A stretch of 30,538 nucleotides of DNA. Origin: a virus. Taxonomy: Duplodnaviria; Caudoviricetes. The stretch is taken from the IMG/VR virus record IMGVR_UViG_3300049893_001639, positions 1-30,538 of that record; one strand, given 5' to 3'. Below, piece by piece: positions 5,992 to 28,836 of this stretch (the stretch's first letter is position 1; every line of letters begins with the position of its first letter). The notes below the pieces were generated by a model that was not told where the DNA came from, searched no databases, and saw only the letters and a program-made list of their open reading frames with translations. Made by a program: the position numbers and the translations under genes.

Positions 5992-6214
5992 CGGGTATTG
6001 TGAGAAGAATTGAAGGAAGGGGAGGTGATGCCAAGTGGGTTTTTGTACTTGCGACAATCCGGTATATTTGGGAGGCTGTCAGAAACATAATAAATCCGCG
6101 TCTTAGCCGGGGGCAGCGCATCCGGCCAAAAACACGCAAAGTTTTAGGTTTATTTTTTGATTGAAAGGTAATATAATAACGGCACGGGGGAGGGAGATAG
6201 GGGCAAGTGCTGAA

Positions 6215-7207
6215 GTGTTGGTGGTGAGGACGCCGTTTAGAGTTTCGTTTTGCGGGGGAGGCACCGACTTCCCAGCTTGGTTTGTCACCAGGCCGGGGGC
6301 CGTCGTCTCTGCCGCCATCAATCGTTATTGTTACCTCACGCTCCGTCACCTACCGCCGTTTTTTGACTACGACTCGCGTTTCGTTTGGTCCCGCATAGAG
6401 CAGGTCAGTTCTCTCGACGAAGTTTATCACCCCGCCATCAAGGGCTGCCTTAAGTTCTTAGGTTTAGAGAAACCATCTATTCAACTCCACCACGACGCCG
6501 ACCTACCGGCCCAGTCGGGCACGGGCAGCAGCGCGGCGTTTACCGTCAGCTTACTACACGCATTGTATGCCGAGAGGTGCCGTCTGGTCACGGCGGAACA
6601 GCTGGCGATTAACGCCATGCAGGTAGATCAAGACGTAGTGGGCGAGGTTACTGGTTGTCAGGACCACGTGGCGGTGGCCTGCGGGGGCGTCAATCATATC
6701 GATTTCGGCCCCGCCAGGCACGACTTCCGGGTAAAGATGCTGCCCGTAGACACTCAGGCGTTGGGGCATCACCTGATGATGTTCCACACCAAACAGTATA
6801 GGCAATCTACGGCAAGTGATATAGAGACTATTAAGTGGCAGGGCCGTCCTGACGAGCAGTTGTTGAGGGCGCAGTACGAGCTGACGCCCAGGTGCTTAAT
6901 GGCCTTGGCCGATGGTGATTATGCTGCGTTGGGCAAGGTGTTGAGCGAGAGTTGGTTGTTGAAGCGGGAGCTGGCCAAGGAGGTCAGCAACTCCCACGTA
7001 GACGATTGTTATTGGCGTGCGCTGGACGCCGGGGCCTATGGGGCCAAGCTGTGTGGCGCGGGAGGCGGGGGCATATTGTTGGTGGCCGCCCCGCCCGATA
7101 AGCGTGAGCGGTTGAGGCAGGCGCTGGCCGATTGTGTATATGTGCCGTTTGGCGTTGATCACGAGGGCAGCCGCCTGGTCTATCGCGGCGGGCAGGAGCT
7201 GGGGTGA
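6215..7207 (+). CDS. GHMP-family sugar kinase (HddA/heptose-7-phosphate kinase-like)
   Basis: 'RTPFRVSFCGGGTD', 'PAQSGTGSS', 'GCQDH', 'KLCGAGGGG'; start probably GTG near 6215 rather than 6161. Confidence 0.85.
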   Translation: MLVVRTPFRVSFCGGGTDFPAWFVTRPGAVVSAAINRYCYLTLRHLPPFFDYDSRFVWSRIEQVSSLDEVYHPAIKGCLKFLGLEKPSIQLHHDADLPAQSGTGSSAAFTVSLLHALYAERCRLVTAEQLAINAMQVDQDVVGEVTGCQDHVAVACGGVNHIDFGPARHDFRVKMLPVDTQALGHHLMMFHTKQYRQSTASDIETIKWQGRPDEQLLRAQYELTPRCLMALADGDYAALGKVLSESWLLKRELAKEVSNSHVDDCYWRALDAGAYGAKLCGAGGGGILLVAAPPDKRERLRQALADCVYVPFGVDHEGSRLVYRGGQELG

Positions 7208-10992: not shown

Positions 10993-11213
10993 AGACGTCG
11001 TTGATCAAGTTGGCCAGCGGGCTGATGTTGAAGGCGGCGGTTTGCCCTATATGCGGCGGGCGTATTTATCCTATCAAGGCGTTGAAGGCCCACCGCGAGC
11101 GCCACATTCAGAACTCCCTGCTCTTAAAGTGGATCAACCGCGAGGCCCCTCATTGGCCCAAGCGGCGGTTTCGTCACACTTGGGATTGGTCTTGTACGGG
11201 AGGTGAGCTATGA
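10989..11213 (+). CDS. Small C2H2-like zinc-finger protein
   Basis: CPIC-x12-H-x3-H; GTGA/ATGA overlaps at both ends. Confidence 0.6.
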   Translation: MKTSLIKLASGLMLKAAVCPICGGRIYPIKALKAHRERHIQNSLLLKWINREAPHWPKRRFRHTWDWSCTGGEL

Positions 11214-11527
11214 GGCGGGCTGTGTTGATATTGCTGGCGGGCTTAGCGCTGTTGGGCTGGTCAGTCGCTGACATCAACGCTGCGCAGGCCAAGCGAGGCA
11301 TTGAGTTGCGGTGGCAGGACAACAGCAATAACGAGGCGCAGTTCAACGTGTGGCGCATAGCCAGCAACAGCTCCTGGTGGTACCTGATCGGCAGGGTAGG
11401 GCCTAACGTGACGGTGTATCGTGACACGACGACGCGCAAGGGCCGCTTTTACTGCTACACGGTCACGGCGGCGAACGCCTCGGGAGAGAGTGCCGCTAGC
11501 AACGAGAGCTGCGATTATGGGCCATGA
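11210..11527 (+). CDS. Secreted single fibronectin type III domain protein
   Basis: Signal peptide; 'LRWQDNSNNEAQFNVWR', 'YRD', 'YCYTVTAANASGESAASN'. Confidence 0.8.
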   Translation: MRRAVLILLAGLALLGWSVADINAAQAKRGIELRWQDNSNNEAQFNVWRIASNSSWWYLIGRVGPNVTVYRDTTTRKGRFYCYTVTAANASGESAASNESCDYGP

Positions 11528-11627
11528 GGCATTAGAGTGGCTGGCGGCGTTATTTGTGGTAGCGTTAGCGGTCTTGGTAGCTGTATTGATATTGGCGTTT
11601 GTTTATTATGAAAGGGGGGCGGTATGA
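11517..11627 (+). CDS. Tiny single-TM protein
   Basis: MGHEALEWLAALFVVALAVLVAVLILAFVYY; overlaps both neighbours. Confidence 0.45.
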   Translation: MGHEALEWLAALFVVALAVLVAVLILAFVYYERGAV

Positions 11628-12208
11628 AACGATTACTATTGGCGGTGATGATGGTGTTGTGCGCAACGGTGGCGCAGGCGCAGACTGAGCAGCTGAGGCT
11701 GAACTGGACCGATAACGCTAGCAACGAGGACGGTACCAAGATAGAGCGCGGCTCTACCTCGTCAGGACCATTCTCGCAGATTTTTCTGCTGCAGGGGGCC
11801 AACCTGGTGACCTTCACGGATAATAATTTAGCTCCTGCCACGTCGTTTTGCTACCGGGTGAGGGCTTTCAACGCGGGGGGCGACTCGCCGTACTCTAACG
11901 TGGCCTGTGCGGTGACGCCCGCTACCATGACGGTAACGGTGAACGGGGCAGGCACGGTAACGTCCAGCCCCGTAGGTATTAGCTGCCCTGGCACCTGTAG
12001 CGTTAAGTTTGACGGCAAGTCGACGGTGATGTTGACGGCGGCGGCCGCCGTGGGGTCTACGTTTACGGGATGGGCTGGGGGGTGTACAGGGGCCGCTGCT
12101 ACCTGTAGCGTGACGATGGATGGCGTGAAGTCGGTAACGGCTACGTTCACGGCCATAGCGGTGCCCGCTGCGCCAAGCAACTTGACCACTACGCCCATCA
12201 GCCAATGA
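11624..12208 (+). CDS. Secreted FN3 plus InlB-B-repeat-like (divergent bacterial repeat) protein
   Basis: Signal peptide; 'LNWTDNASNEDG...YRVRAFNAGGDSPYSN'; 'GAGTVTSSPVGISC...FTGWAGGC...VTATF'. Confidence 0.85.
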   Translation: MKRLLLAVMMVLCATVAQAQTEQLRLNWTDNASNEDGTKIERGSTSSGPFSQIFLLQGANLVTFTDNNLAPATSFCYRVRAFNAGGDSPYSNVACAVTPATMTVTVNGAGTVTSSPVGISCPGTCSVKFDGKSTVMLTAAAAVGSTFTGWAGGCTGAAATCSVTMDGVKSVTATFTAIAVPAAPSNLTTTPISQ

Positions 12209-13578
12209 TTAGCTCGCGACAACTCAAGCTCAAGCGTCTCTTGAAGCTCAAGCATCTCTTTGACGAGACGGTGTTTGTCTGGTGGCTACTGCTGCTGATG
12301 TTGGTCGGCGCGTTGTTGGCGATTGTTTTGGCGCTGTCTATAGTCGAGGCGGCTCAAGCTAAAAAGGTCAGAATCAGGGGCAAGGCCGAGGTGATTCACA
12401 TAGATCGGTTGGGGAACCAGAGCGAGTTCCGCTACTTCGTACACGATCAGGGCAAGCGGCGTGAATTGAAGTTTAAGAAAGAGCCCAATTTCAAGACCGA
12501 CGACGAGATAGATGTTGAGGGCGAGGAAAACGCCGACGGTAGCGTCAACGTGGAGACGGCCTTTTTAACTAGCGTGTTACCTAATGTTCTTGGCGAGCAA
12601 CGGACCATCGTCATCATGGTTAATTTTACCGACAACACCGGGCAGCCGCTCACCGCAGCAGGTATCAAGACCGTGTTTGGGCGCGTTAGCCAGTTTAAGC
12701 GCGAGAACTCATTCAACCAGACTTGGTTGGCCAGCGGGGTTGGCGTGGCCGATACGGTGGACGTGTTTGGCTGGTTTACCTTGAGCTTGGCTGCGGCGGC
12801 TTGCTCTAATAATTATTTCGCGATGGCGGAAGAGGCCGACAAGCTAGCCGCGACGGCCGGGGCGGTGTTAAGCCAGTACCGGCGCAAGGTGTATGTGTTT
12901 CCTACTTCTAGCTGTGGTTATTCGGGCATGGGAACGGTGGGAGGTTCTCCCTCAAGGGCCTGGCTGAACGGTAGCGGCGGTGCTGATTTTGGCACTACCA
13001 GTCACGAGCTGGGTCATAACCTTGGGTTGTTTCACTCGCGGTCTTTATGCTCGCCTAACTGTTCTTCCTCTGAGTACGGGGACGTTTATGACGTGATGGG
13101 CAACTCTAACGGCGGCGGCCACTTTAATCCGTACCAAAAAGAGCGGTTGGGGTGGTTGGACTACGGCCAAAACCCGCCCATCACTATGGTAACTGCTGAC
13201 GGGCGTTACCGAGTGGGTAATTACGAGAGCAACGTCAACGAACCTAAGGCGCTTAAGATATTCAAGGACGTCAGCCCCGTGAGCGGCTTAAGGCGCTTTT
13301 TTTATATCCATAAGCTCAGCTCGTCTCAGTTTTACTCCGGCATCGGAAACGCCGTGGTGGTCCACGTGGGGGAGGAAAATTCGGCGAGGGAGATCTACCT
13401 GTGGGACCTGGATCAGCAGAGCACCAATACCGATTGGGTGCTGAACGTGGGGCAGACGTACAGCGAGAGCGGTGCGAGCTTCACGTTGGTTAACCAGCAG
13501 GCTGATTTTATCGAGGTCGACGTGTCGTTGAGCGGAATGGCTGTTCCGCCTGCGCCGACCAGCTTAGTGGTGCGGTGA
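12205..13578 (+). CDS. Membrane-anchored/secreted metzincin metalloprotease (M11 gametolysin-like)
   Basis: N-terminal TM; 'HELGHNLGLFH' (HExxHxxGxxH); Met-turn 'EYGDVYDVMG'; 'KERLGWL'. Confidence 0.85.
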   Translation: MISSRQLKLKRLLKLKHLFDETVFVWWLLLLMLVGALLAIVLALSIVEAAQAKKVRIRGKAEVIHIDRLGNQSEFRYFVHDQGKRRELKFKKEPNFKTDDEIDVEGEENADGSVNVETAFLTSVLPNVLGEQRTIVIMVNFTDNTGQPLTAAGIKTVFGRVSQFKRENSFNQTWLASGVGVADTVDVFGWFTLSLAAAACSNNYFAMAEEADKLAATAGAVLSQYRRKVYVFPTSSCGYSGMGTVGGSPSRAWLNGSGGADFGTTSHELGHNLGLFHSRSLCSPNCSSSEYGDVYDVMGNSNGGGHFNPYQKERLGWLDYGQNPPITMVTADGRYRVGNYESNVNEPKALKIFKDVSPVSGLRRFFYIHKLSSSQFYSGIGNAVVVHVGEENSAREIYLWDLDQQSTNTDWVLNVGQTYSESGASFTLVNQQADFIEVDVSLSGMAVPPAPTSLVVR

Positions 13579-14213: not shown

Positions 14214-17090
14214 ATGCCTATTATAGAACACTTATTGAGACTCGCTGGGTACGCTAAGACGCCCTCAGCCAACAGGCAGGTGGCAGTTGCCGATCCAGGT
14301 AAGAGCCAAGAGCCGCCTACTATAAGTTCGGCGGGTAGCTTTTTTGGCTTCTACGGCAGGCCACATCTCGGCTCGGCTTTTTTACCCACCCCGTATAATC
14401 CTGATACGCTTGTTCAGCGTAAGGGGCTGAAGACCTACCGCACCATGCTCACCGACGAGCAGGTGAAGGCGGCGCTATTGGCCAAGAAGTACGCCGTGCT
14501 CAGTAACGGGTACGAGATACAGCTGGCGCAGCTGCCCGAGAGCAAGACGCAGCCGGGGCAGCCGCCAGCTAAGCCCGGCGAGAAGAAGCCGCCGTTTGGC
14601 CAACCGTTATCTGAAGAAAGCGAAGAGGCAAACGGCGAGGAGGCTGGCAACGAGGATGAGTTGTTCTCCCGTCGTTATCTGTCCCCTGGTCAAAACGGCA
14701 ATGGTAATAAGGTGAGTAATGGGCGTGACCTCGGAGGCAACGGCTTTAACGCCGAGCCGCCGTTCAACGGGGCAAGCGGCGAGGGCGAGCAGTTTCTAGG
14801 GGGCAACGGAGCAGAGGAGCCGGTTGAGGAAGAGGAGGAGCCGCGTGATCCCTTGTTGGAGGCCGCCGAGGAGCACAAGGAATTTATCGAGTTCGTGTTT
14901 GAGGAGATGAAGGGCAGCTTTAACAGCAAGCTGTTGAACATCATGTCGGCGGTGGAGTTCGGCTACTCAGTCAGCGAGAAGGTTCTGCAGAAGATCGACT
15001 TTGGGGACTTTGAGGGCAAGTGGGGGCTGCAGGACATCTTGACGCGCCCGCCCGAGGACATCGAGTTTCAAATAGACGCCTACGGGCGATTAACTCCCAA
15101 TGGCGTGATGCAGTTTGGCGATTACCTACCGGCTGACAAGTTTGTTATTTACTCCCATGCGCAGCAGTTTGGTAACCTATATGGCAACAGCGACTTGCGA
15201 GCGGCTTATAGATGCTACAGCGATGATACTGAAATTTTAACCGAATATGGCTGGAAGATGTTGTCTGCGGTGACGATAGAAGATCGAGTTGCGACACTGA
15301 ATCCGAAAACCGACACGCTAGAATATCAATATCCCAGCAAGCTGTATGCATATAGACATCAAGGCAAGATGTTTCATCAGGGCGGTCGATTTATCGATTT
15401 TTTAGTTACGCCCAATCATGAAATGTGGGCTAAGGGAGAAAATGAATCGAAATTCAGAACAATTCCGGTTCAAGATCTGCCGAGGCATGCCAACTATAAA
15501 CGCAATGCTAGATGGATTGGCGTAGAACCGTCAACGTTCGATTTGCCTGATTTTTTCGTTGACCAGATTGTAGCTAATCAATTTGGCCGATATAGAGAAC
15601 GTAGAAATTATCAATCGATGCGTCATATTCCGATAGAATCGTGGCTGAGTTTCTTTGGAGTATGGTTAGCAGAGGGCCATACTTGGCAACGTAAGGATGG
15701 TAACAAGCAGCGCATCGTGGGTATTACGCAAAATCCCGGTCCCAAATTAGAGTTGATAAAGAAGTGGGTAACCGACTGTGGCTTTGCCTACTACGAACAC
15801 AAAGGAACAGAGACTCATAAAGCCAGTATTATTGAGATATGCAATGTTCAACTATTCGAGTATTTAAAGAGGTTTGGCGGTTCTTATGATAAGTTTATCC
15901 CGCATGAACTTAAGCAGCTATCACCGCGATTGCTACGCATACTTTACGATGCATTGATGCTTGGAGACGGTAGGCACAATAGGGAATATTGTACAGTGTC
16001 ACGTCGGCTCGCTGATGATGTGGCCGAAATTATTTTCAAGATGGGATATGCTGCTACAATTAGTGTCGAAAAATTAAAACGATTCGGCCCCATCTTTGTA
16101 ATAGGCAGAAATGAGCGCCGAATTGGCAATACGCGAGTCAATGAACATATAGATAGACGAGAATGGATTGATTATGACGGGATGGTTTATTGCTTAGAAG
16201 TGCCCAATCATATTGTCTATGTCCGTCGAGATGGAAAAGCGGCGTGGTCGAGGAATAGCTATTGGGCCAAGGATAACATGCTGAAGCTGATGGCGGTGTC
16301 GCTAGAGCGCTATGCCGAGCCGATAGCCGTGGCCACGTACAAGGGCCTGTTGGACGGCGACCAGCGCGACGATTTGCAAGGCTTTTTGAAGAACCTGCAG
16401 AGCCGGTCGGGCATCATCTTGCCTGAGTCGGTTGTGTTGGATTTTAAGTCCCCGCCGCCCAGGGCCGCTGAGGCGTTCATCCCGGCCATTAACCTGTATG
16501 ACCAGCACATCCGCATGGCCATCCTGATGCCAGGTCTGATCGGGCTGAGCGGTGAGCAGACCACTGGTAGCTTTGCGCGGGCCGTCAAGGAGTTTGACGT
16601 CTTCTTGTGGATACTTGGCCATCTGCGCAAGGACATAGAGACCGTCGTCAACGAGCAGATCATTAAGCCGCTGATCGATATGAACTACGAGGTCGAGCAT
16701 GGGCAATACCCCAAGTTCAAGTTCAAGGAGATCACCGAGGAGGCGCGGCGAGCGCAGTTCGAGTTGTTTATAACGGGCTTAGGCAGCGGGGCCTTGACCA
16801 AGGGGCCAGAGGATGAGGACAAGCTGCGAGAGCTGATAGGGTTTGAGCCGCTGCCGGAGGACTTTGAGCCACCAGAGCAGCCTAGTCCGTTCGGTAACCT
16901 GCCCTTTGGCGGGCCTCAGCCTCCTGAGCAGCAGCCGCCGCAGTTTGGCGGGCCGCCTAACGGCAATGGTAACGGCGGGTGGCCGCCAGCTGAGGAGGAG
17001 CCTGTTGACGAAGACGAGTTCCAGTTCAGCGCTGATCAAGAGGCGCGGCTGGTGGAGTTCGTGAACAAGATGAGGAGTAAGACGGTATAG
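14214..17090 (+). CDS. Portal protein (DUF935/Mu gp29-like), intein-containing
   Basis: 'YRTMLTDEQVKAAL', 'AVEFGYSVSEKV', 'GNLYGNSDLRAAY', 'ERYAEP', 'VNEQIIKPLIDMN'; position after TerL. Confidence 0.9.
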   Translation: MPIIEHLLRLAGYAKTPSANRQVAVADPGKSQEPPTISSAGSFFGFYGRPHLGSAFLPTPYNPDTLVQRKGLKTYRTMLTDEQVKAALLAKKYAVLSNGYEIQLAQLPESKTQPGQPPAKPGEKKPPFGQPLSEESEEANGEEAGNEDELFSRRYLSPGQNGNGNKVSNGRDLGGNGFNAEPPFNGASGEGEQFLGGNGAEEPVEEEEEPRDPLLEAAEEHKEFIEFVFEEMKGSFNSKLLNIMSAVEFGYSVSEKVLQKIDFGDFEGKWGLQDILTRPPEDIEFQIDAYGRLTPNGVMQFGDYLPADKFVIYSHAQQFGNLYGNSDLRAAYRCYSDDTEILTEYGWKMLSAVTIEDRVATLNPKTDTLEYQYPSKLYAYRHQGKMFHQGGRFIDFLVTPNHEMWAKGENESKFRTIPVQDLPRHANYKRNARWIGVEPSTFDLPDFFVDQIVANQFGRYRERRNYQSMRHIPIESWLSFFGVWLAEGHTWQRKDGNKQRIVGITQNPGPKLELIKKWVTDCGFAYYEHKGTETHKASIIEICNVQLFEYLKRFGGSYDKFIPHELKQLSPRLLRILYDALMLGDGRHNREYCTVSRRLADDVAEIIFKMGYAATISVEKLKRFGPIFVIGRNERRIGNTRVNEHIDRREWIDYDGMVYCLEVPNHIVYVRRDGKAAWSRNSYWAKDNMLKLMAVSLERYAEPIAVATYKGLLDGDQRDDLQGFLKNLQSRSGIILPESVVLDFKSPPPRAAEAFIPAINLYDQHIRMAILMPGLIGLSGEQTTGSFARAVKEFDVFLWILGHLRKDIETVVNEQIIKPLIDMNYEVEHGQYPKFKFKEITEEARRAQFELFITGLGSGALTKGPEDEDKLRELIGFEPLPEDFEPPEQPSPFGNLPFGGPQPPEQQPPQFGGPPNGNGNGGWPPAEEEPVDEDEFQFSADQEARLVEFVNKMRSKTV
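15213..16256 (+). mobile_element. Intein with LAGLIDADG homing endonuclease in the portal (348 aa)
   Basis: Block A 'CYSDDTEILTEYGW', block B 'VTPNH', 'FFGVWLAEG' and 'DALMLGDG', block F 'VYCLEVPNH', end 'WSRN|S'; visibly AT-richer than the flanks. Confidence 0.93.
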
Positions 17091-17094
17091 GCCA

Positions 17095-19479
17095 ATGACG
17101 CCTAGCTCTTCTAACCGCTTAGAATTCTTAGACAGGCTGATCAAGCTGATGCAGCTGAGGCAGACGGCGGCGCGTCGGTATCACCTGCCGGGTGAACACG
17201 AGCAGGAATCGCATGGTGGGGGTGGAGAGCATCAAGAGAAGCCGATTGGTAGCGGCGGCAAGATTCATTTAACCAATGAACAGCTTGATAAGAAATTTGG
17301 CAAGCGCGGCACTAAGAATAAAGTTCCACCCGGCACTCAATTCGGTTCGATACTTGCCATTAAATTAAAGTCTGGCGGACTGGTCATGGGCCAAGTGACT
17401 CCGCATGAGAATTGGGCAAAAGGTGGGAAAGACACTGGCAAGTTGATATTGACGACCAGCAAAGGCGAGCGTATCGAGATAGACCGCGGCATGAAGTATG
17501 TCCCGGCTATAGGTGAAAATGCGGTAGGCGGCTTGTGGCAACACGATCCTGACAAAAAAGGCGGAGATATAGAAAGATCGTGGCGTCTAACTCGCGCTGT
17601 TGCTGAACACGCTGAACAAGCCATAGCCAAAGAATATCACCTGCCCGGCCAGCACGAGCAGCAGAGTCATGCAGGCGGTGCATCTGATAATCGTGATCGA
17701 GATTCAAAGGATAGATACAACCATGCTGAAGCGGTTGCGACAGACCCTCATGCCATAGCTCATGTAAGTCTTACGCCTGGCCAACGCAAACAACCGTGGC
17801 AAATGAGCCAACAAGAATACGAATCGTTGCCGGTCGTATATCGCGGAGGCAAAGTAGGTACTGGCTTCATGTTTGTCACTCAAGATAGGCGGTTAGCGGA
17901 AATTCACGGGCAAGGTAGAATCACCGCATTTAAAGTGCTGCCGTCGTCCAAAGTATTCGCCGACCCAGAGATTGAGGGCGAACAGGATAGGGCGTTGAAT
18001 GGATTGGAATCGTTAAAGATAGCGTCAGCCGTGGTTCACGCCAACGACTTGATTCCTAATTTTAGCTATGGCGCATGGAAGCATGAGAGCGGTAAACGCT
18101 ATCATCTCCCTGGTGAACACGACCAAGAGGCCCACGGCAACCGAGATGGCGCAAGCGAGGACAAGCCTGGTGGCAAGGCGGATGTGACTCGGACGCCTGA
18201 GTTCAAGAAATGGTTTTCTGGGTCAAAAGTTGTTGACGCTAAGGGCGAGCCGCTGGTTGTGTATCATGGGACATTCAGAGGGAACAATTTCGAAGAGTTC
18301 AGGTCGACTAAATTCCCAGGTGTCGCCGGTTACTTTTCTACAAGTCCAGAGCTCGCGAGCCTAGCTGCTGAACCGATGTTTAGGAGCGAAGAGGAAAACG
18401 CCAACCCGCACGTTATCCCAGCTTATCTCAGTCTCAAGAATCCATTAGACGCTACGAGTCTAGGCGGCGACCCTGGCGGCCACATAAATTCCTACACGTT
18501 CAGGGAGATCATTTCTAAGCTAGGGTTAAAGGCGAAGGAGCACGAGATCACCGACGTAGACGAGTTTCGCTGGGAGGGCAGAAAGAACCCAGTATGGTCG
18601 GCGCTAGCTACGCCACAATTTATAGAAATTGTTAAGCGCAACGGTTACGACGGGGTTAAATTTCACGATGTGCAATTGCCTGAATATGTCTCAGGACCAA
18701 CTGTCGAATATGTAGCGTTCGCATCTAACCAAGTCAAATCCAAATTCAATCGCGGAACCTTTGACCCCAAAGACCCCCGCATCAGCTACGACCGTTCATC
18801 CAATCAAGTCCATGTTTGCGCTAATGGCAACGGCTACCGCCTGGCCTTGATGGGGTTCGACTTCACCGAACGATCATATCACTTGCCAGGGGAGCATGAT
18901 CAGGAGAGCCATGCAGGAGATGATAAGCCGAGCAGTCGTATTAGCAAACGGCGCGAGTTTTCAGGCAGTCCTGTTCATACTCGTACCCGTTGGACTAAGC
19001 TGGAAACTGGCGAGCGCGGCGAGAGCATAGCGATAAATTACTTACGTAAGCTTGGGTTTAAAGATGCACGCAAGTTCGAGTTTAGCGGGCGCAATAATTT
19101 GCCGGTAGATTTAATTCACGATCATGAAATATACGAAGTTAAGGCGGGCATGATTTACAATCAACCCGACGCGCAAAAGTGGCGCTTGACATTAGGGCAA
19201 CCAGGGAAAAAAGAAACCGAGTGGTTGCATAAAGCGCGAGATTCAGAGCGAGCGGCTTGGAATAAGCGCAAGGCGCAACTAGTTATAAAGCGTAAGCGCG
19301 AATTAGTGCAGAAATTGTCCAAAGAGTTAGGTAGGCCGGTTAAGTTAAAGACCCTTACGATGGTCATAAACCCAGATACGCAGCGCGCCGATTTGCACGT
19401 ATTTGATGGCACGCATCCTATTATCAGGTGGCGGTCGCCAGAAGCGCAAAAGGCGTATGTGGGTACGATTAAATTTTAA
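17095..19479 (+). CDS. Head-associated polyvalent protein: four YHLPGxHxQxxH-tagged modules (unknown, ART-like, ART-PolyVal-like, PD-(D/E)xK nuclease)
   Basis: 'VVYRGG..FVTQDRRLA'; 'FKKWFSGSKVVDAKGEPLVVYHGT..YFST..YLSLKNP..GYDGV'; 'GERGE..VDLIHDHEIYEVK'. Confidence 0.75.
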   Translation: MTPSSSNRLEFLDRLIKLMQLRQTAARRYHLPGEHEQESHGGGGEHQEKPIGSGGKIHLTNEQLDKKFGKRGTKNKVPPGTQFGSILAIKLKSGGLVMGQVTPHENWAKGGKDTGKLILTTSKGERIEIDRGMKYVPAIGENAVGGLWQHDPDKKGGDIERSWRLTRAVAEHAEQAIAKEYHLPGQHEQQSHAGGASDNRDRDSKDRYNHAEAVATDPHAIAHVSLTPGQRKQPWQMSQQEYESLPVVYRGGKVGTGFMFVTQDRRLAEIHGQGRITAFKVLPSSKVFADPEIEGEQDRALNGLESLKIASAVVHANDLIPNFSYGAWKHESGKRYHLPGEHDQEAHGNRDGASEDKPGGKADVTRTPEFKKWFSGSKVVDAKGEPLVVYHGTFRGNNFEEFRSTKFPGVAGYFSTSPELASLAAEPMFRSEEENANPHVIPAYLSLKNPLDATSLGGDPGGHINSYTFREIISKLGLKAKEHEITDVDEFRWEGRKNPVWSALATPQFIEIVKRNGYDGVKFHDVQLPEYVSGPTVEYVAFASNQVKSKFNRGTFDPKDPRISYDRSSNQVHVCANGNGYRLALMGFDFTERSYHLPGEHDQESHAGDDKPSSRISKRREFSGSPVHTRTRWTKLETGERGESIAINYLRKLGFKDARKFEFSGRNNLPVDLIHDHEIYEVKAGMIYNQPDAQKWRLTLGQPGKKETEWLHKARDSERAAWNKRKAQLVIKRKRELVQKLSKELGRPVKLKTLTMVINPDTQRADLHVFDGTHPIIRWRSPEAQKAYVGTIKF

Positions 19480-21201
19480 AGCAGTATGGATTATCCGCTG
19501 AAAGAAGTAGAAGCAGAATTTTTAGCCGCGCTAGATAGTGAAGGCGAGGCATGGTTACGCGAAATGACGGAGCGATTACGCAACGTGCCGAAGAGTCCGC
19601 GCTACGCCTACGCGCGCGCCAATGGTAACGGCTACCGCCTGGCCCTGATGGGCTTCGACTTCACCGACCTGCCGCTGCGCCGTAAGCAGTTCGCGGCTTA
19701 CTTGAGACGTAACGGGGTTGCGCGAGACGTAGCGGAACGGGAAGCGGCGGGGCTTAGGCACTCGTGGGAGTTTGCGGCGTCCACTAGCGGCAAATCCTTC
19801 TTTCAGACTCTTCCCGCATGGCGCGGCACATTGGACCTAACCCCCGGCAGCGATGGGCTTAAGCTGTTCGATGAGTACCAGCATGTGAGGGGATACCATT
19901 TGCCTGGGGAGCACGATCAGCAGAGCCATGCTGGGGAAGATCAGCGTGTTGATGATGATAAGAACTATTTAGGCGGAGGTTCGCGATTGCCTTCGATGGT
20001 TTATCGAGGCGGAAGTAATCAAAATACGTCTGAAAGTTTTCCAGCCGGGGTATATGTTTCAACTAATCGAGATGCGGCTAAGCAATGGGGGCCAGTAGTC
20101 GAGCATAAGATAGTGAAACAACCTAGATTACTTGACCTTGGTAACTGGCACAGCCTTGGCGCTAAGAGCATCGTAGCGCGGCTCACTGGCCAAAGACCTG
20201 GCGGCATGGATTTTAATGACTATGATCAGGCGGCTGCTGAATTATTTATTCAAATGCCAGACGAGCTGGTACGAGTGCTGCGTAAGAATGGGTTTGATGG
20301 CGCGCGGTTCGGTCAAGATGCCTTTTTGATCGGGAAGTTAGATGATTATACTAAGAACGTGAGGCGGCACGAAGCCTATCAGCCGAACGATGACGAGGCG
20401 ATTAAGGTACATCACCAACGCGAGATGACCAAGGCCGAGCGCCGGTGCGACTTCGCGGCTATTAAGAAGCAGTTCGACGAGGATGCCTTAAAGATAGACT
20501 TGGCCATGCGTGAGCCGATCAAGACCGCTCGTGACGCCCTGTTGGCCATGATCCGGCAGTGGGGGCCTAACGAGGTAACGCCTGAGTTCATCCAGTCGGT
20601 TAAGTTAACGACGGGGCCGGAGCTGGGGCAGCTGCTGAACGAATACCTGCTAGCTACGTGGCGCAAGAACAGGGACTTGGCGCTGGCTGAGCTGCCTGAG
20701 GGAACGCAAGCTAGGTTAGCTGGGATGAGAAAGTACCATCTGCCGGGGCAGCATGATCAGCAAACGCACGCCGGGGATGATGAGGGTAACGGCGGCGAGT
20801 ATAATCGCGCAGGCAAGGTAGTCAGTGGGCTAAAGGTACGGTCTTTTGTGCCCAATCAAGATTCTATTGCTGCCTCGCTTACTGATTATGAGATTTTGCC
20901 GGGTATACGCGAGGTGCCATTGGCGTCGTTTGATCCTCAGTATCAGCCGGTACGCGATGATCGCACAAAAGCATTGGCTGAGCAGATTAAGGCCAGTGGT
21001 GAAATTAACCCGTTAATAGTCGCGGTGGATTCTAAGGGGCCTTACATCATCGAGGGCGGTCATCGCTTTGATGCCATGTATTTGTTGGGTGTGAGGTCGT
21101 TTCCAGCGATGGTAGTGATTGATAAAGAAGCTGATGTGCCGAGATTTAAATATGCCCATAAGTATCACTTACCTGGCGAGCATGATCAGCAGAGTCATGC
21201 C
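17179..21201 (+). repeat. Seven dispersed in-frame repeats encoding YHLPG(E/Q)H(D/E)Q(E/Q)(S/A/T)H(G/A)
   Basis: Copies start at 17179, 17635, 18100, 18877, 19894, 20734 and 21163; codons differ synonymously. Confidence 0.95.
18820..19667 (+). repeat. 50-bp direct repeat (18820-18869 and 19618-19667) encoding ANGNGYRLALMGFDFT
   Basis: 46/50 identical, and all four differences are synonymous. Confidence 0.9.
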
Positions 21202-23583
21202 GGAGATAGGGAAGTTGACGATTATAAACGAGAACTGCAGGCTGATGTAGACCAAGCTCCGATAGTTAAACGATTACGCGACGCCATAGTGGCGAAGGAA
21301 GATCACGTTTATAGAATAATAACTGGGCGCGAGTATGATAACGCGCTAAAATCTGGCGTCTTGGTGCCTGGGTACGCGGCGGATACCGGCGGGACGGTTA
21401 ATTTTTCTAAAGAGCCGATTCCATTGTACGGTGGTAGCGCTGTACTGTCTCACGGAATGGTTGTGGAGGTGCCAGAATCGGCTTTTGATTCTCCTAAGAT
21501 TTATCCAGGGTCTAAGGATTTGTACCTTTCTTCCGCCGTTAATGTGCCGTTAAATAAAGCCTCTCGTGCTTGGGGCATTCAATTTGTCAAAGAAGGCATC
21601 AAGGTGGCCTTGCTTGACAGGGTTATAACTAAAAAATATGCCTCTGCTTTCAAGCCCGACGTAGCCGAGCGTTACTTGAAAAACAGAGCGTTAGCTATCC
21701 AAGGCATCGTAGACGACGACCTAACCAAGCAGGTCAAGCTAATCCTGTTCAATGCTTTAAAGGCCGGCCGCCACGCGCAAGAGACGATGGGCGAGCTAGC
21801 CGAGGCGTTCTTTCCGTGGGTGGGCGATCCCGAAAAGATAGTGCCTAGCGGCGTGACCGGAACGCAAGAGGATATATTACAAGCTTATCGGCTAGAGAAC
21901 ATCGTACGCACTGAGACCAGCACGGCTATGAGCGAGGGCAGGGCAGCCGTGGCCGATGCGGCGGCTGACTACGTGAGAGGCTACGAGTTGTCGGCGATTT
22001 TAGACGAAAGGACTTGTTTCAGAAAGGGTGCATTGATAAAACTTGGAAATGGCAAATATGCACCTATCGAAACGATCACTCCCGGCACAACAATTATTTC
22101 CGGTGCCGGTCATCAAAAACGAGTCATCGCAGCTTGGCGATATCCAGCAAGGCACTGGCGCAAGATTACAGTCGCCGATGGTAGATCGGTCATCTGTACA
22201 TACACGCACCCATTCTGGACGCAATCAGGATGGCGCGAAGCCGTGGACTGTACGCCGATTGAAACTCATATCGGAACAGAATCTTGGGAGAGGGTCGAGT
22301 TGGAGGGACTGCCTACAATGTGGCCAGAAGTTTCACCAATTCAACAGCAATCCGCGCAAGTTTTGCTCAAATCGATGTTGTATTGCGTGGGCACAAATCC
22401 ACTTGCGCAAAATCAAACCATGTCGGCATTGCGGTCGTCCTCTTTGCAAAAAAGCTGGAACAAAGAAGATATTTTGCAGCCGAAAGTGCTGGATTGCGTC
22501 CAAGGGAGCCTGGATAGAGATGGTATGCATCCAATGCAAGACCACGTTTCGTCGGATGCACAAGGAAATACAGCGAAAGGGGCACGTAGGAAAATATTGC
22601 AGCCGAAAGTGCTACTTGGCACAGAAGGCAAATCGGACAAAGAAGACATGTCCTATTTGCAAGAAGGGGTTTTCAGTTCCTACCTCCAATGCCAATCGTT
22701 ATATGGCGTGTTCGAAAAAATGTGGAAGGCTAAGACGTCGAAAGGGAATGCCGCTAAAAACAATACGTCGCAAATGCCCAGGATGCAGCAAGGGTGTTGT
22801 ACGTATTCCAACGCCAAGTCGGACAAAGATCAAGAAAGCGTGGTGCAGTATGCGATGTCTAGCGGCATGGCGAATCAAACAAAGAATAGATACTCCATGC
22901 GCTACATGCCACAAAATCATGACACATCCGCTGGGGCAACATCCGATTTTTTGTTCGACTGCATGTTATATGAAAAGCAGCACGCCTACACGCACAGAGC
23001 AAATGGCAGAGAATGTGTTGATATCAATGAACATCCCATATCAAAGAGAGGTCAGACTCAAGAATTATTCGTTAGATTTTCTGATAGACGGATGGCTCGC
23101 ACTAGAGATGGATGGAGTCTTTTGGCACAGCAAGAGCAAGGAGAGGGATGCAAAAAAGAATATTGCGATAAAGAGTGCGGGGTACGAGTTATTGAGATAC
23201 CAATGCAACAACGCCACACCGAGGGCCGCCGTATCACTTCGTCGCATATTGACCATGCGGTTAAACCGACGGCTACGAAGTTTATCGCAGTCGTTGCCAA
23301 CGAAGCAATCGAAGAACCCGAATGGGCCTATGATATCGAAGTCGAGTGCGATCATACATACATCGCCAACGGTTTGATTGTCCACAATACAACTGCTTGT
23401 GAACTAGCCGATGGCGAGAAATTTATGATTAACGACCCGCGAGCCAAGCAGTTAATGCCTCCTCTTCACTGGAATTGCCGCACCGTACCAATTTTTTTGA
23501 CTACCGACGATGAGCCGATAGACTGGTCGTCAGACGAAGAGCTAGATGCCGTGATAGACGCCATCCCAAAAGGGTTTAAGTAA
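19486..23583 (+). CDS. MuF (Mu gp30/SPP1 gp7-like) minor head protein with three tagged inserts (ART-like, ParB-like, ART-like) and an intein
   Basis: 'RLENIVRTETSTA', 'SAILDERT|T..C', 'PPLHWNCRT'; ParB-like 'INPLIV..YIIEGGHRF'; ART-like 'VYRGG..GVYVSTN..A' and 'VYRI..VNFS'. Confidence 0.85.
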   Translation: MDYPLKEVEAEFLAALDSEGEAWLREMTERLRNVPKSPRYAYARANGNGYRLALMGFDFTDLPLRRKQFAAYLRRNGVARDVAEREAAGLRHSWEFAASTSGKSFFQTLPAWRGTLDLTPGSDGLKLFDEYQHVRGYHLPGEHDQQSHAGEDQRVDDDKNYLGGGSRLPSMVYRGGSNQNTSESFPAGVYVSTNRDAAKQWGPVVEHKIVKQPRLLDLGNWHSLGAKSIVARLTGQRPGGMDFNDYDQAAAELFIQMPDELVRVLRKNGFDGARFGQDAFLIGKLDDYTKNVRRHEAYQPNDDEAIKVHHQREMTKAERRCDFAAIKKQFDEDALKIDLAMREPIKTARDALLAMIRQWGPNEVTPEFIQSVKLTTGPELGQLLNEYLLATWRKNRDLALAELPEGTQARLAGMRKYHLPGQHDQQTHAGDDEGNGGEYNRAGKVVSGLKVRSFVPNQDSIAASLTDYEILPGIREVPLASFDPQYQPVRDDRTKALAEQIKASGEINPLIVAVDSKGPYIIEGGHRFDAMYLLGVRSFPAMVVIDKEADVPRFKYAHKYHLPGEHDQQSHAGDREVDDYKRELQADVDQAPIVKRLRDAIVAKEDHVYRIITGREYDNALKSGVLVPGYAADTGGTVNFSKEPIPLYGGSAVLSHGMVVEVPESAFDSPKIYPGSKDLYLSSAVNVPLNKASRAWGIQFVKEGIKVALLDRVITKKYASAFKPDVAERYLKNRALAIQGIVDDDLTKQVKLILFNALKAGRHAQETMGELAEAFFPWVGDPEKIVPSGVTGTQEDILQAYRLENIVRTETSTAMSEGRAAVADAAADYVRGYELSAILDERTCFRKGALIKLGNGKYAPIETITPGTTIISGAGHQKRVIAAWRYPARHWRKITVADGRSVICTYTHPFWTQSGWREAVDCTPIETHIGTESWERVELEGLPTMWPEVSPIQQQSAQVLLKSMLYCVGTNPLAQNQTMSALRSSSLQKSWNKEDILQPKVLDCVQGSLDRDGMHPMQDHVSSDAQGNTAKGARRKILQPKVLLGTEGKSDKEDMSYLQEGVFSSYLQCQSLYGVFEKMWKAKTSKGNAAKNNTSQMPRMQQGCCTYSNAKSDKDQESVVQYAMSSGMANQTKNRYSMRYMPQNHDTSAGATSDFLFDCMLYEKQHAYTHRANGRECVDINEHPISKRGQTQELFVRFSDRRMARTRDGWSLLAQQEQGEGCKKEYCDKECGVRVIEIPMQQRHTEGRRITSSHIDHAVKPTATKFIAVVANEAIEEPEWAYDIEVECDHTYIANGLIVHNTTACELADGEKFMINDPRAKQLMPPLHWNCRTVPIFLTTDDEPIDWSSDEELDAVIDAIPKGFK
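22015..23388 (+). mobile_element. Intein in the MuF domain (458 aa) with an out-of-frame endonuclease
   Basis: 'CFRKGALI', 'CTYTHPF', 'AYDIEVECDHTYIANGLIVHN|T'; removing it restores DERT-TTAC. Confidence 0.92.
22043..23377 (+). CDS. Nested +1-frame ORF: six CxxC...CSxxC zinc-finger repeats plus DUF559/Vsr-like endonuclease (true start uncertain, perhaps near 22259)
   Basis: 'PTRTE...YSLDFLIDGWLALEMDGVFWH...RDAKKN...GYELLR'; repeats FCSNRC, FCSRKC, YCSRKC, ACSKKC, WCSMRC, FCSTAC. Confidence 0.85.
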   Translation: MEMANMHLSKRSLPAQQLFPVPVIKNESSQLGDIQQGTGARLQSPMVDRSSVHTRTHSGRNQDGAKPWTVRRLKLISEQNLGRGSSWRDCLQCGQKFHQFNSNPRKFCSNRCCIAWAQIHLRKIKPCRHCGRPLCKKAGTKKIFCSRKCWIASKGAWIEMVCIQCKTTFRRMHKEIQRKGHVGKYCSRKCYLAQKANRTKKTCPICKKGFSVPTSNANRYMACSKKCGRLRRRKGMPLKTIRRKCPGCSKGVVRIPTPSRTKIKKAWCSMRCLAAWRIKQRIDTPCATCHKIMTHPLGQHPIFCSTACYMKSSTPTRTEQMAENVLISMNIPYQREVRLKNYSLDFLIDGWLALEMDGVFWHSKSKERDAKKNIAIKSAGYELLRYQCNNATPRAAVSLRRILTMRLNRRLRSLSQSLPTKQSKNPNGPMISKSSAIIHTSPTV

Positions 23584-23590
23584 TGGGCCG

Positions 23591-23773
23591 ATGGAAACGA
23601 TTCGGAGGAAAATTCAGCACGAGGACAAGGTCAACGTAGCTTTGGCTAATCTAACTCGCATAGAGGAACTTATCGCTCTCAATAAGCTCAGGCGGACATA
23701 CCCCCATATGGACACGTCGGCGACGGACAAGGAAATTGAGCGGCTGCTGAGAGAAGAGGCTAAAGGCGGGTAA
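23591..23773 (+). CDS. Hypothetical protein
   Basis: Packed helical ORF. Confidence 0.55.
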   Translation: METIRRKIQHEDKVNVALANLTRIEELIALNKLRRTYPHMDTSATDKEIERLLREEAKGG

Positions 23774-25432: not shown

Positions 25433-27427
25433 ATGCCTGATTTACCCACGGTAAGCATAAACGGTCTTGAAGTGTTTTCGTCGGGGTCGTTTAACGGCGA
25501 CAAATATTCCGAAGCCGATCTTGACTTGATGGTTGATGCCTTTGACAAGGTCGGGTTTCAGCCTACCATCAAAGCCGGTCACGCTGATGGCCAAGAGGAC
25601 GCTAAGGCGGCGCGCAAGGTCTTTGGCGAACCATCTCTTGGTTATGTGTCTCGTCTTTATCGTAATGGCAAAAAGCTGATGGCCGATATCACCAGCGTGC
25701 CGCGCCGGTTTGCCGACTTGATTAAAGCCCGCAGCTTTAGCCGCGTGTCGTCAGAAATTTACTGGAACTACAAAAACGACTCTGATCATAAGACCTACCC
25801 TCGCGTGCTTAAAGCCGTAGCCTTCTTAGGCGCTGATATCCCCGCCATTACTTCCTTGAAAGAGATTGAAGCTCTCTTCAGCCGCAACGACGAAGGCAGC
25901 CTGTTTGCCTATGACGAGAACAAGAACGAGTTCCGCGTGTATGACGTTCAGGCGTATAAGGAAGAGGGCACGTTCGTCATCAAGCAGGAGGCCGAGGGCT
26001 ATTGCGTTTACAACCCGCAAGGCGAAAAGGTCAAGGCTTGGCCCACGCTAGAAGCCGCGCAAAAATCGCTTGAAGGCTACAACTTCAAGGTTGAGGGAAA
26101 AGACGAGCCGCCTGCTGATAAGCCGCCGGAGACTTTTGCCGCCGTCACCGAGGTGCATATCTACACCATCGTGCAGCGGGGCGACCAGTGGTGCGTAACG
26201 ACTGCCGATGGTTCTAAGACGCTCGGTTGTCACCCGTCCAAGGAAGAGGCCTTGAATCAATTAAGGGCCGTAGAGGCTAACAAGCACTCCAATTCTACCG
26301 ACCTGCCCGTTCGCCTAGTGGCTAAGTTCTGCCAGAGCTGTGCTGAAAAAGCCAGAAGTTTATCAGTTACGGAGCTGCGGTTTGACTTAGACAAAGTTCC
26401 CCAAAAGGCCGTTCAGTGGCTGTTGGCCAAACGGTATTTAGACACCAGCGATCCCGGTATGTTCCGCAACTGCATGGACGACAATGAGATGGTAGACCGC
26501 TACCCCGAAGAGGAGACACGCGCTAAGGTATGCGCCTCGGTCCACCAAAAGGTCACCGGCGAGTGGCCCGGTGAGCACCGCAGCGAGCATAGTTCTAAAA
26601 CCCCGCACAGGAGGTACCAGATGAGAATTACGCAAGACGGCATGGACTATTGCGTCGAGGACGACAATGGTCAAGTGGTGAAGAAGTTCCCCTCCAAGAA
26701 GGAGGCCGAGGACTACATGAACAGCATGAGTGGCGGTAGCCCAGCTGACGATCAGGGCAAGTCTTCTGGGTATAAGAGCAAGGAGCCCGATCGTCAATAC
26801 AGAAAGGGGGGTCAAGGCATGACTCAAGAGGAATTTGACGAGCAGTTGAAAGCAAAGCTCGACGCGTTGAAGTCTGAGATGACACGCGAGTACGAGTACC
26901 GCATCCACAAGGCGCGGGAAGACGGCAGGGCGGAGGCTGAACGCGACAGCGACGCCCTCCGCGAGGAGGTCCGCAAGCTGCAAGCCGAAAAGCGGTCAGA
27001 GCGGATCGAGAGCTGGATCAAGCGGGTGAAGGCTGAGGGCAAGCTGGCCCCGGCGGAGGAGTCCAAGGTGCGGGCACTGCGCGAGTGGATTCCCGACAAC
27101 GAGGGGTCGCTCAAGTACTTCACCCTAGCGGCAGGGGGAAAGACCAAGGAGCACACCGAGTCGCCCGCCGACATCTTCGAGTCGCTCTTCGAGCAGCGCA
27201 CCAGCATGTTCAAGCTGCTGAGCAAGCCGGGCAGCGAGGGCGAGAGCTACGAGGAGACGGGTCAGGAGCTGGACGATCCGGGGCAGGAAGTCGACAGGCG
27301 GGCCAAGGTGTATCAGCAGGCGCAGCGCACCAAGGGCACCGACGTCAGTTACGGCACAGCGGTCAATCACGTGCTGAAGCAAGACCAGCAGCTGGCTAAC
27401 AAGTACCACGAGTTGAGCCGGCACTAA
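25433..27427 (+). CDS. Mu gpI-like prohead protease fused to scaffold, with inserted small domains
   Basis: 'EVFSSG', 'PTIKAGH', 'PSLGYV', 'FSRVSSEIY', 'LKAVAFLGADIPA'; coiled-coil C-terminus ending 'VSYGTAV'. Confidence 0.85.
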   Translation: MPDLPTVSINGLEVFSSGSFNGDKYSEADLDLMVDAFDKVGFQPTIKAGHADGQEDAKAARKVFGEPSLGYVSRLYRNGKKLMADITSVPRRFADLIKARSFSRVSSEIYWNYKNDSDHKTYPRVLKAVAFLGADIPAITSLKEIEALFSRNDEGSLFAYDENKNEFRVYDVQAYKEEGTFVIKQEAEGYCVYNPQGEKVKAWPTLEAAQKSLEGYNFKVEGKDEPPADKPPETFAAVTEVHIYTIVQRGDQWCVTTADGSKTLGCHPSKEEALNQLRAVEANKHSNSTDLPVRLVAKFCQSCAEKARSLSVTELRFDLDKVPQKAVQWLLAKRYLDTSDPGMFRNCMDDNEMVDRYPEEETRAKVCASVHQKVTGEWPGEHRSEHSSKTPHRRYQMRITQDGMDYCVEDDNGQVVKKFPSKKEAEDYMNSMSGGSPADDQGKSSGYKSKEPDRQYRKGGQGMTQEEFDEQLKAKLDALKSEMTREYEYRIHKAREDGRAEAERDSDALREEVRKLQAEKRSERIESWIKRVKAEGKLAPAEESKVRALREWIPDNEGSLKYFTLAAGGKTKEHTESPADIFESLFEQRTSMFKLLSKPGSEGESYEETGQELDDPGQEVDRRAKVYQQAQRTKGTDVSYGTAVNHVLKQDQQLANKYHELSRH

Positions 27428-27840: not shown

Positions 27841-28836
27841 ATGGACGGAATACTAGACAGCAACATTACCATCGGCCGAAGCGTCAAGCAGTACGCCGGG
27901 GCAACGGGGCGCGACCTCCATATCGACACCCCTTTGACAAACTTGACCATCGGGTACGAGCCGCAAGGGCTCATTGCTCCGATGATCTACCCCATCGTGC
28001 CGGTCGACAAAGAAACGAACAACTACTACATCTGGGCCAAGAACGAGACCCTGCGGCTGTTCGACAGCTACCGGGCGCGTGGCCGTGCGGCTAACCGCAT
28101 CAACTTTGACGTCAGCTCCGACACCTACGCGGTGAAGAACTACGCCTTGGCGATTGATATTCCTCTTGAGGATATCGACAACGCTGACGCGCCGTTAGAC
28201 ATCCGGGGCAGCGGTGCCCGGCGGGTGACTAACGCCTTGAACCTGGCGTGGGAAGACCGGCTGGCCGTCACGTTGACGACCACGACCAACATGACGTCGT
28301 CAACGGCGTTGGCGTCGGCGTGGAACGACTTGACCAACAGCAACCCGGTAGACGACCTGTACGTGGGGCGCGATGCCATCCGCAAGGCGACGGGGTTTAC
28401 CCCGAACGTGGGCGTGTTTGGTGACCATGCGTGGTCTCGTTTTAGCCGGCACCCTGATGTCATTGAATTCATCAGAGGTAAGGGTGACTCAACGGGTGGC
28501 GGCCCGGTGACCGAAGCCCAAGTGGCTACGGCTTTTGGCCTTGGCCGTGTACTGATCGGTAAGGGGCTGAAGAACACGGCGGGTGAAGGCTTGACTGGTG
28601 TCTATACCGACATCTGGTCGACGGCAGCGGTGTTGCTGTACGTGGCCCCGACCCCTGGCTTGATGGAGCCGTCACACGGTTACACTTTCCGCTGGACGCC
28701 GGCTGGGCTGCCTGGCCCGTTGGCCGTTGAACGATACGTGAACCAACGCGAGAAGACAGAATCGGTCGAGGTGCACATGTTCCAGGACGAGAAGGTGACC
28801 GGTACCGATTTGGGCTACCTCATCGTGGGGTGCTAG
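27841..28836 (+). CDS. Major capsid protein
   Basis: AGGAGG SD; 331 aa; 'DLHIDTPLTNLTIGY', 'IYPIVPVDK', 'W....SNPVDD', 'PSHGYTF'. Confidence 0.88.
   Translation: MDGILDSNITIGRSVKQYAGATGRDLHIDTPLTNLTIGYEPQGLIAPMIYPIVPVDKETNNYYIWAKNETLRLFDSYRARGRAANRINFDVSSDTYAVKNYALAIDIPLEDIDNADAPLDIRGSGARRVTNALNLAWEDRLAVTLTTTTNMTSSTALASAWNDLTNSNPVDDLYVGRDAIRKATGFTPNVGVFGDHAWSRFSRHPDVIEFIRGKGDSTGGGPVTEAQVATAFGLGRVLIGKGLKNTAGEGLTGVYTDIWSTAAVLLYVAPTPGLMEPSHGYTFRWTPAGLPGPLAVERYVNQREKTESVEVHMFQDEKVTGTDLGYLIVGC

Follow-up and report, generated by a model that had tools for sequence, protein, structure and literature searches.

The window analysed here, a 30.5-kb (30,538-nt) stretch of DNA making up one virus record, contains terminase, portal, MuF, Mu-like protease–scaffold and capsid genes. 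The portal gene (14214..17090, + strand; PF06074, phrog_113) harbors an intein-like insert at 15213–16256 (+; Cys...Asn|Ser, GC3 0.40), which is absent from six related portals. Downstream of it lie two open reading frames of the same strand, ORF1 (17095–19479, 794 aa) and ORF2 (19486–23583, 1365 aa), followed by a 60-aa ORF at 23591. Secreted-looking genes, including one for an M11 metallopeptidase, occupy positions 11210–13578 (+) between the terminase and the portal; comparable small genes are located between the portal and MuF in the related phage L163. Upstream of the packaging genes are two ORFs that we take to be radical-SAM-like (20–2373, +) and GHMP-kinase-like (6161–7207, +), possibly involved in sugar or base modification.

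ORF1 and ORF2 contain, in frame, seven copies of an 11-residue peptide, HLPG[EQ]H[DE]QxxH (hereafter the tag), four in ORF1 (tags 1–4) and three in ORF2 (tags 5–7). Their first histidine codons (His1) start at positions 17182, 17638, 18103, 18880, 19897, 20737 and 21166, and each is preceded by a tyrosine codon, which is where the initial annotation, correct as to the number of copies, had placed the tags. No eighth copy was found in a six-frame search of the window, and even the loose pattern H.PG.H was present in merely 190 of 20000 residue shuffles. Pairs of tags share 23–31 of 36 nucleotides and display, out of 12 codons, 3–9 synonymous versus 0–4 non-synonymous differences, which confirms that the peptide is conserved in protein and not in codons. 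The scrambled codons and preserved residues indicate selection on the peptide, so that the seven tags are genuine and selected as protein. No coverage of the tag was found in any family model of Pfam, PHROGs or NCBIfam, and a tag profile gave no match at E 10 against PDB sequences.

Each tag heads a different module. ORF1 (all features +) opens with a 29-aa leader (17095..17181) that ends in RRY, resembles a leader helix in L163 (phmmer E 0.009) and is a candidate removable targeting propeptide. Tag 1 and module 1 (17182..17637, ending KEY) could not be assigned to a family in Pfam or PHROGs and had no Atlas match; two homologs of this module were found, and one contig appears to lack it. Tag 3 is followed by an ART-PolyVal domain (18103..18789, ending ISY; PF18760, E 3.3e-18, above cut-off), as proposed in the initial annotation, and tag 6 by a ParB/Srx-like domain (20737..21165, ending HKY; PF02195, E 6.6e-6), a proposal that likewise stands, with a ParB_N score of 26.5 bits for a cut-off of 26.3 and additional matches to ParB-like PHROGs. 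The other assignments stand in part. Modules 2 (with tag 2, 17638..18102, ending KRY) and 7 (with tag 7, 21166..21639, ending KKY where MuF resumes) are predicted to adopt ART folds, minimal in the case of module 2: all their top structural rows belong to the ART family (Arr, Tpt1, CC0527, DarT), with weak scores (Z 3.9–5.9, Foldseek E 0.01–0.1). More specifically, the model of module 2 (pLDDT 88, from 16 sequences) best matches Arr and Tpt1, weakly (Foldseek E 0.11, Z 3.9, rmsd 3.3, 71 aligned), and that of module 7 (pLDDT 68, from 4 sequences) matches CC0527 (Z 5.9, rmsd 3.1, 91 aligned) and Tpt1 (Z 5.6), again weakly, with Atlas leads as well; a homolog search with the module 2 region returned the self-match only. 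Module 5 (with tag 5, 19897..20379, ending EAY), also annotated as ART-like, is likely a divergent ART-PolyVal-like domain, on the strength of a weak, profile-only alignment (hhalign P 2.4e-4, probability 44%); a search for its homologs found none. Module 4 (with tag 4, 18880..19479), which runs to the stop codon, is a predicted PD-(D/E)xK nuclease: E48, D77 and E86-x-K88 are invariant in 4/4 aligned sequences and constitute what we take to be the signature of that family, without a Pfam match. Modules 3 and 4 are separated by a linker (18790..18879, ending RSY) that partially duplicates the A element described below, with a 52-nt repeat 92% identical to 19616–19667, which marks, to judge from this identity, a recent duplication.

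The initial annotation viewed ORF2 as a plain chain of modules. Comparison with relatives having the same protease indicates otherwise: ORF2 is a MuF gene with modules at two internal sites and an intein. The MuF N-terminal helix (19486..19605, +), which by inspection matches the uninterrupted MuF start in L163, ends in PRY at insertion site 1. It is followed by an A–B element of ~97 aa (19606..19896, +; ending RGY), to which no function could be assigned, and then by tag 5 and module 5. This A–B element is conserved and two-part, and relatives carry cargo between A and B, after the WEFAxY end of A; in the window, the Tyr of this end is lost and no cargo is present there. MuF segment a (20380..20736, +), which BLASTP aligns with the uninterrupted MuF proteins of L124, L125 and L163, ends in RKY at insertion site 2, occupied by modules 6 and 7. 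Segments b and c (21640..23583, +) match PF04233 (E 4e-9), PF14890, TIGR01641 and TIGR01443 and contain the intein (22015–23388, +), whose frame is open over ~458 codons. Note that a shifted frame inside the intein (22043–23377, +) is coding as well, its 444-aa product having Cys-rich repeats and a DUF559 endonuclease domain; this makes up a long double-coding stretch. At site 2, the empty alleles of L124 and L125 read RKF|A where the window holds modules 6–7 between RKY and KKY|A; the site is filled by another tag family in L123, and MuF is split there in L126. These alleles show that cassettes are inserted in MuF at an aromatic site that is conserved. The window MuF ends at the usual C-terminus of the family, so that the cassettes are internal and not a C-terminal extension. 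The tag was not found in the close relatives L164–L174.

Using the exact degenerate pattern, we found 117 tagged stretches on 83 IMG/VR contigs, with 145 distinct contexts; one match (L093) was set aside as chance or off-frame. The broader pattern shared across phages is HLPGxHxQxxH. In a pattern search of GTDB, 13 of 76 hits were judged genuine by eye, the other 63 being discarded as chance or off-frame, and the genuine hits fall in 12 regions, all of them within head modules. Head genes adjoin the tag in 34 of the 37 IMG/VR contigs scanned and in the 12 prophage regions, which bears out the proposal of a modular cargo among head genes. The expectation that the tag marks domain boundaries elsewhere held in many phages as well, where it precedes ARTs, kinases, GNATs, nucleases and domains without assignment: among 142 tag-following segments, 41 match Pfam at E 0.01, of which 18 match ART families and others kinases, GNATs, peptidases and ParB, and 101 have no Pfam match. 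Proteins with up to ten tags exist. Three proteins of 2272–2745 aa (P0010, P0012 and P0033) carry 4–10 tags of the form HLQGxHDQxxH, nearly all after Phe. In a further variant (L016, L017, L041, L069, L085, L086 and L241), a CxxC immediately precedes the putative cut, and the tag itself contains two Cys (HDQCDHSPTGxC) and ends like the CPTG tag family mentioned below; it may be a chimera or a metal site across the cut. The prophages that bear the tag belong to Actinomycetota, Chloroflexota and other groups, so that hosts come from several phyla, and the tag occurs together with capsid, portal and protease families that are unrelated to one another.

The residue before the tag turned out to be informative. 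The initial annotation had included the Tyr in the tag (YHLPG); across phages, however, this position is lineage-specific, with, by context, K 99, R 13, E 11, Y 7, A 6 and F 6. Of the 29 contigs with several tags, which are not phylogenetically independent, 27 have the same residue before every copy (permutations gave a mean of 11.6 and a maximum of 18), as do 8 of 10 multi-tag proteins, yet the residue differs from phage to phage. A uniform residue could also result from the common ancestry of the copies, and tag-independent positions were tested for that reason. The last residue of ART-PolyVal domains is of the phage's pre-tag class in 9/9 ends from 6 phages, and 8 of these ends have no tag immediately after them. 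When HK97-like capsid proteins are aligned, their mature start, a position that presumably corresponds to the HK97 cut, is R in 4/4 R-type and K in 2/2 K-type phages; of two A-type capsid starts, one is plausible and the other (L137) is a mismatch, since in this phage Ala precedes the tag whereas the capsid site and the protease sites have Lys. Altogether, the pre-tag residue tracks what appears to be the prohead-protease site of each phage, and the simplest reading is that it is the P1 residue of that protease. Self-cleavage by the tag was rejected on the same grounds, as what stands before the tag depends on the phage rather than on the tag.

In the window, the putative cutting enzyme is a Mu-like prohead protease fused to the scaffold (25433..27427, +; phrog_976, E 1.5e-34), whose His50 and Ser106 are invariant in 9/9 aligned sequences. 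Its protease domain spans 25433–25957. The fusion protein also contains small inserted domains (phrog_3684-like repeats, phrog_6439), several of which start right after a Tyr. The capsid protein carries an 18-residue N-terminal extension (27841..27894, +), a putative propeptide with KQY before Ala, which ends exactly where the capsid proteins of 8/11 relatives start with Met; the extensions of the other 3/11 end in KKY|A, KRF|A and RTY|A ([KR]x[YF]). The same short motif thus recurs at head sites, namely KQY|A in the capsid extension, RKF|A in the empty MuF and [KRH]xY before the tags (7/7 in the window), from which we infer that the window protease cuts at [K/R/H]-x-Y.

Tag-free protease and scaffold proteins were scored for [VILFM]-x-P1-[SAG], a motif whose small residue after the cut was picked after viewing the sequences: the tag's class ranked first of five in 14/28 phages (K 9/11; E 2/2, z 6–7; A 2/4; R 0/6; Y/F 1/5), and first in 3 of 13 control proteins (z at most 1.7). 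By this comparison, the agreement appears strong for K and E only. The window scaffold contains 7 [RKH]xY where 3.6 would be expected (z 2.0), an excess not above that of a non-head control (z 2.5). Neither the generic hydrophobic-P3 motif, which does not fit the window, nor a basic-P3 motif derived from the window, which is not above controls, was retained. As for protease families, which we surveyed in 50 of the 83 contigs, PF14550 occurs with the K type only (9 matches) and phrog_976 with the Y/F type only (3), and PF04586 with R (6), A (3) and K (5). When prophages are included, the A class co-occurs with three protease families; therefore, the residue is not determined by which protease family is present. 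A search of the 50 contigs for a T4-type S77 protease gave no match, nor did its control, and a tie between the S77 family and the likeness of the E type to L/I-x-E was dropped.

Proteolytic release with HLPG neo-termini, as put forward in the initial annotation, is thus supported as likely by a pre-tag residue that co-varies with capsid, cargo-end and scaffold motifs; cleavage appears well supported by comparison, and we consider cleavage by the prohead protease highly probable. If the chains instead remained uncut and acted as intact polyvalent proteins, with the tag as an uncut docking repeat, there would be no account of why pre-tag and cargo-end residues change from phage to phage together with the motif in capsid and scaffold, which makes this reading very improbable.

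Parts of the picture are familiar: polyvalent and MuF-fused effectors and maturation by proteases are already known. The two ORFs resemble the phage-type polyvalent proteins of Iyer et al. (2017, PMC5512222), described, in the part of that paper drawn upon here, as virion-associated multi-domain proteins with ART-PolyVal, ParB, GNAT, kinase and peptidase domains, for which proteolytic release was proposed, mainly by built-in metallopeptidase or assemblin domains. Like them, they combine at least two unrelated conflict domains per polypeptide (four modules in ORF1, three plus MuF in ORF2), include hallmark domains above cut-off as single modules (PF18760 and PF02195) and are encoded among virion head genes (terminase, portal, MuF, protease, capsid). 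In contrast, neither a tag recurring at the junctions nor a site matched to the protease is named in the same part of that paper (PMC5512222). MuF polymorphic toxins (Jamet et al. 2017, PMC5576092; Zhang et al. 2012, PMC3482391) are, in the portions of these papers used here, also head-module MuF proteins with variable toxin-like domains, but there a single C-terminal toxin is usually followed by a small immunity gene, whereas the window has three cassettes inside the N-terminal part of MuF and another four in a chain of their own; neither 'motif' nor 'cleav' occurs in the main text of Jamet et al. (PMC5576092). Actinophage protease/MuF/VIP2 fusions (PMC7302621) similarly join an ART toxin to MuF in a predicted virion component, with no tag described in the passages concerned.

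Processing by prohead proteases provides closer parallels, as far as the relevant sections of the papers go. Internal proteins are cut at three-residue motifs, after L/I-x-E by T4 gp21 and after A-x-E by SPN3US gp245 (PMC9026906, PMC10052503), and P2 gpO takes 31 residues off its capsid protein (PMC7552001). The processing of IPI–III and Alt by gp21, and that by gp245, share with our case cleavage at a short motif and an ART among the ejected cargo (PMC9026906, PMC10052503). The analogy drawn in the initial annotation with the T4 capsid-targeting leader is not supported, however: that sequence precedes the cut and is removed (PMC9026906, in the part consulted), whereas the tag lies C-terminal to the inferred site and would be retained on the cargo. 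Moreover, the tag is repeated within one chain and common to unrelated head lineages, unlike the T4 signal. Because it would remain attached, the tag probably still has a function once the head is mature.

The leaders that precede the tag are diverse, unlike the tag itself, and can be short: they have 20 residues or fewer in 13 of 128 tagged ORFs, the shortest (6–9 residues) belonging to stand-alone genes. Short, diverse leaders before an invariant tag favor an address for retention and ejection, and we give a role of the tag as a protein-read address a little less than an even chance. The closest working analogy may be encapsulin cargo-loading peptides, conserved peptides of 10–20 residues that direct enzymes of unrelated kinds into a shell of the HK97 fold and, in Family 1, nearly always lie at the C-terminus and work without a protease, according to the sections used of PMC11664910; a capsid–encapsulin link is known (PMC13669383, in part). 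The likeness is by analogy, with no sequence resemblance seen between the tag and these peptides. On the other hand, the spread over unrelated capsid, portal and protease families is a poor fit to a single protein receptor. A complex prediction for the capsid protein and the tag, scored 0.00, speaks neither way. Note also that native cut sites prefer Ser or Ala after the cut, so that His at this position may be cut less well.

A partner-free role would suit this spread. The main rival is that the tag, cut as above, forms a self-contained metal cap, with the amine and ring of His1, His6 and His11 binding Zn, Cu or Ni, which would protect or fold the new N-terminus without a receptor protein. 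The three His, together with Gly4 and Gln8, are indeed kept in all listed variants of the tag, including shortened ones, and one lineage has Cys residues flanking the tag; but the three His were written into the search patterns, so that their invariance is partly by construction, and the tag region is modeled with low confidence (pLDDT 41–54, in the models of modules 2 and 7). Furthermore, homologs of modules 2 and 7 ride behind other tag families (xDPxQPRDxxGxW, HxGRPGxxGGS, CPTGxGGGxDxxC and HPFRGNQ), some of them in the same genomes. By this comparison, the HLPG tag appears to be one of several interchangeable families that fill the same slots, and the slot thus seems to matter more than the three His. 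Since these families occupy the same slots before the same cargo without an N-terminal His, we regard a metal cap as unlikely. Among five cultured actinophage regions checked, none has the HLPG tag and three contain a QxRDxxGx[WF] motif; these are head-region genes of A3Wally, Racecar and DSL-LC01 (L251, L252 and L254), with a sister tag family. Searches of cultured phages by tblastn gave no match with ORF2 or with a 20-aa tag, a query so short as to be weak.

Alternatively, the tag might be read in the host after ejection, by a chaperone, an unfoldase, DNA or the ribosome, and stabilize or localize the enzymes. This would be independent of the head family and consistent with the presence of the tag in prophages of Actinomycetota, Chloroflexota and others, but the cargo is too varied for one target, the hosts span several phyla, and all genuine hits lie in head modules, with no host protein carrying the motif; we find this reading improbable.

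Do the tags serve as joints between exchangeable pieces? The GC3 of the modules (0.44–0.55) is lower than that of the portal, capsid, scaffold and first two MuF segments (0.66–0.77), with two exceptions, a terminase at 0.53 and a final MuF segment at 0.52; being below most head genes, it suggests that the modules are acquired cassettes. A 151-nt contig from run X3 (depth 4) matches 17635–17775, and its 10 loose bases are identical to 17169–17178, a sequence unique in the window; read in this way, the contig lacks module 1 through an in-frame loss of 152 codons at 11 shared bases, and another X3 contig carries module 1. In an X1 contig, a different leader ending in ARR is joined to tag 3. Because the 10-base overlap is below the bridging threshold, so that no formal joint was called, and X1 is possibly the source sample of the window, these contigs amount to a hint of tag-to-tag recombination, and the idea of the tag as a recombination joint stands to that extent. 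The 11 identical nucleotides at the start of tags 1 and 2, the in-frame fusion of tag 2 to the 10 nt that precede tag 1 and the fusion of tag 3 to another leader would also suit a tag that is a mere portable joint, i.e. a spacer exposing the chain to the protease and a recombination handle, which would have spread as cassettes were duplicated and would have no address function. Yet scrambled codons with kept residues point to selection on the peptide, and a spacer would not need 11 conserved residues over five protease specificities; a joint devoid of address is thus quite improbable.

We propose the following model. The product of both genes would be a chain of exchangeable, enzyme-like cassettes, every one of which starts with the tag. 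The chains would likely be loaded into the prohead via MuF and the N-terminal leader, and the protease of the phage itself would probably separate the cassettes by cutting after [K/R/H]-x-Y, which would free seven modules of 15–25 kDa, each starting with His. The tag, now the new N-terminus, would likely dock the cargo inside the head until ejection. As a side effect, the repeated tag DNA would be a likely crossover point at which cassettes are added or dropped in frame. That the enzymes are packaged in virions and reach the host, for counter-defence or take-over, seems to us quite probable, and the whole model, i.e. loaded cassette chains, cutting by the phage's own protease and a tag docking as a free N-terminus, reasonably so.

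The tag is real and widespread and marks an apparently undescribed variant of phage head cargo: no description was found in the literature searched, which comprised few subscription journals and no supplements, and the FTP alignments of Iyer et al. could contain it within a larger domain model. It places domain boundaries exactly in a large set of enzymes that are likely injected, and the residue before it would predict, from sequence, the cleavage specificity of uncharacterised prohead proteases. In few systems is it understood how tailed phages choose, retain and eject their internal proteins; a tag that is kept behind a cut site specific to the phage lends itself to direct testing with peptide and protease, and prophages of four cultured actinomycete strains carry it, namely Streptosporangium longisporum JCM 3106 (L178), Dactylosporangium sucinum JCM 19831 (L234), Actinoplanes sp. 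CA-054009 (L220) and Micromonospora sp. CPCC 205371 (L198). More tentatively, and as a possibility that we rate well short of even, the tag may belong to a general portable grammar of virion addressing, made of a protease site, a retained tag of 11–20 residues and any enzyme, in which several unrelated tag families would be counterparts of encapsulin peptides or ejection signals, the flanking residue would be re-tuned for each protease and the injected arsenal would be shuffled tag to tag. If so, the tag would enumerate thousands of injected counter-defence enzymes that lack an assignment, and chosen proteins could be loaded into capsids by means of it.
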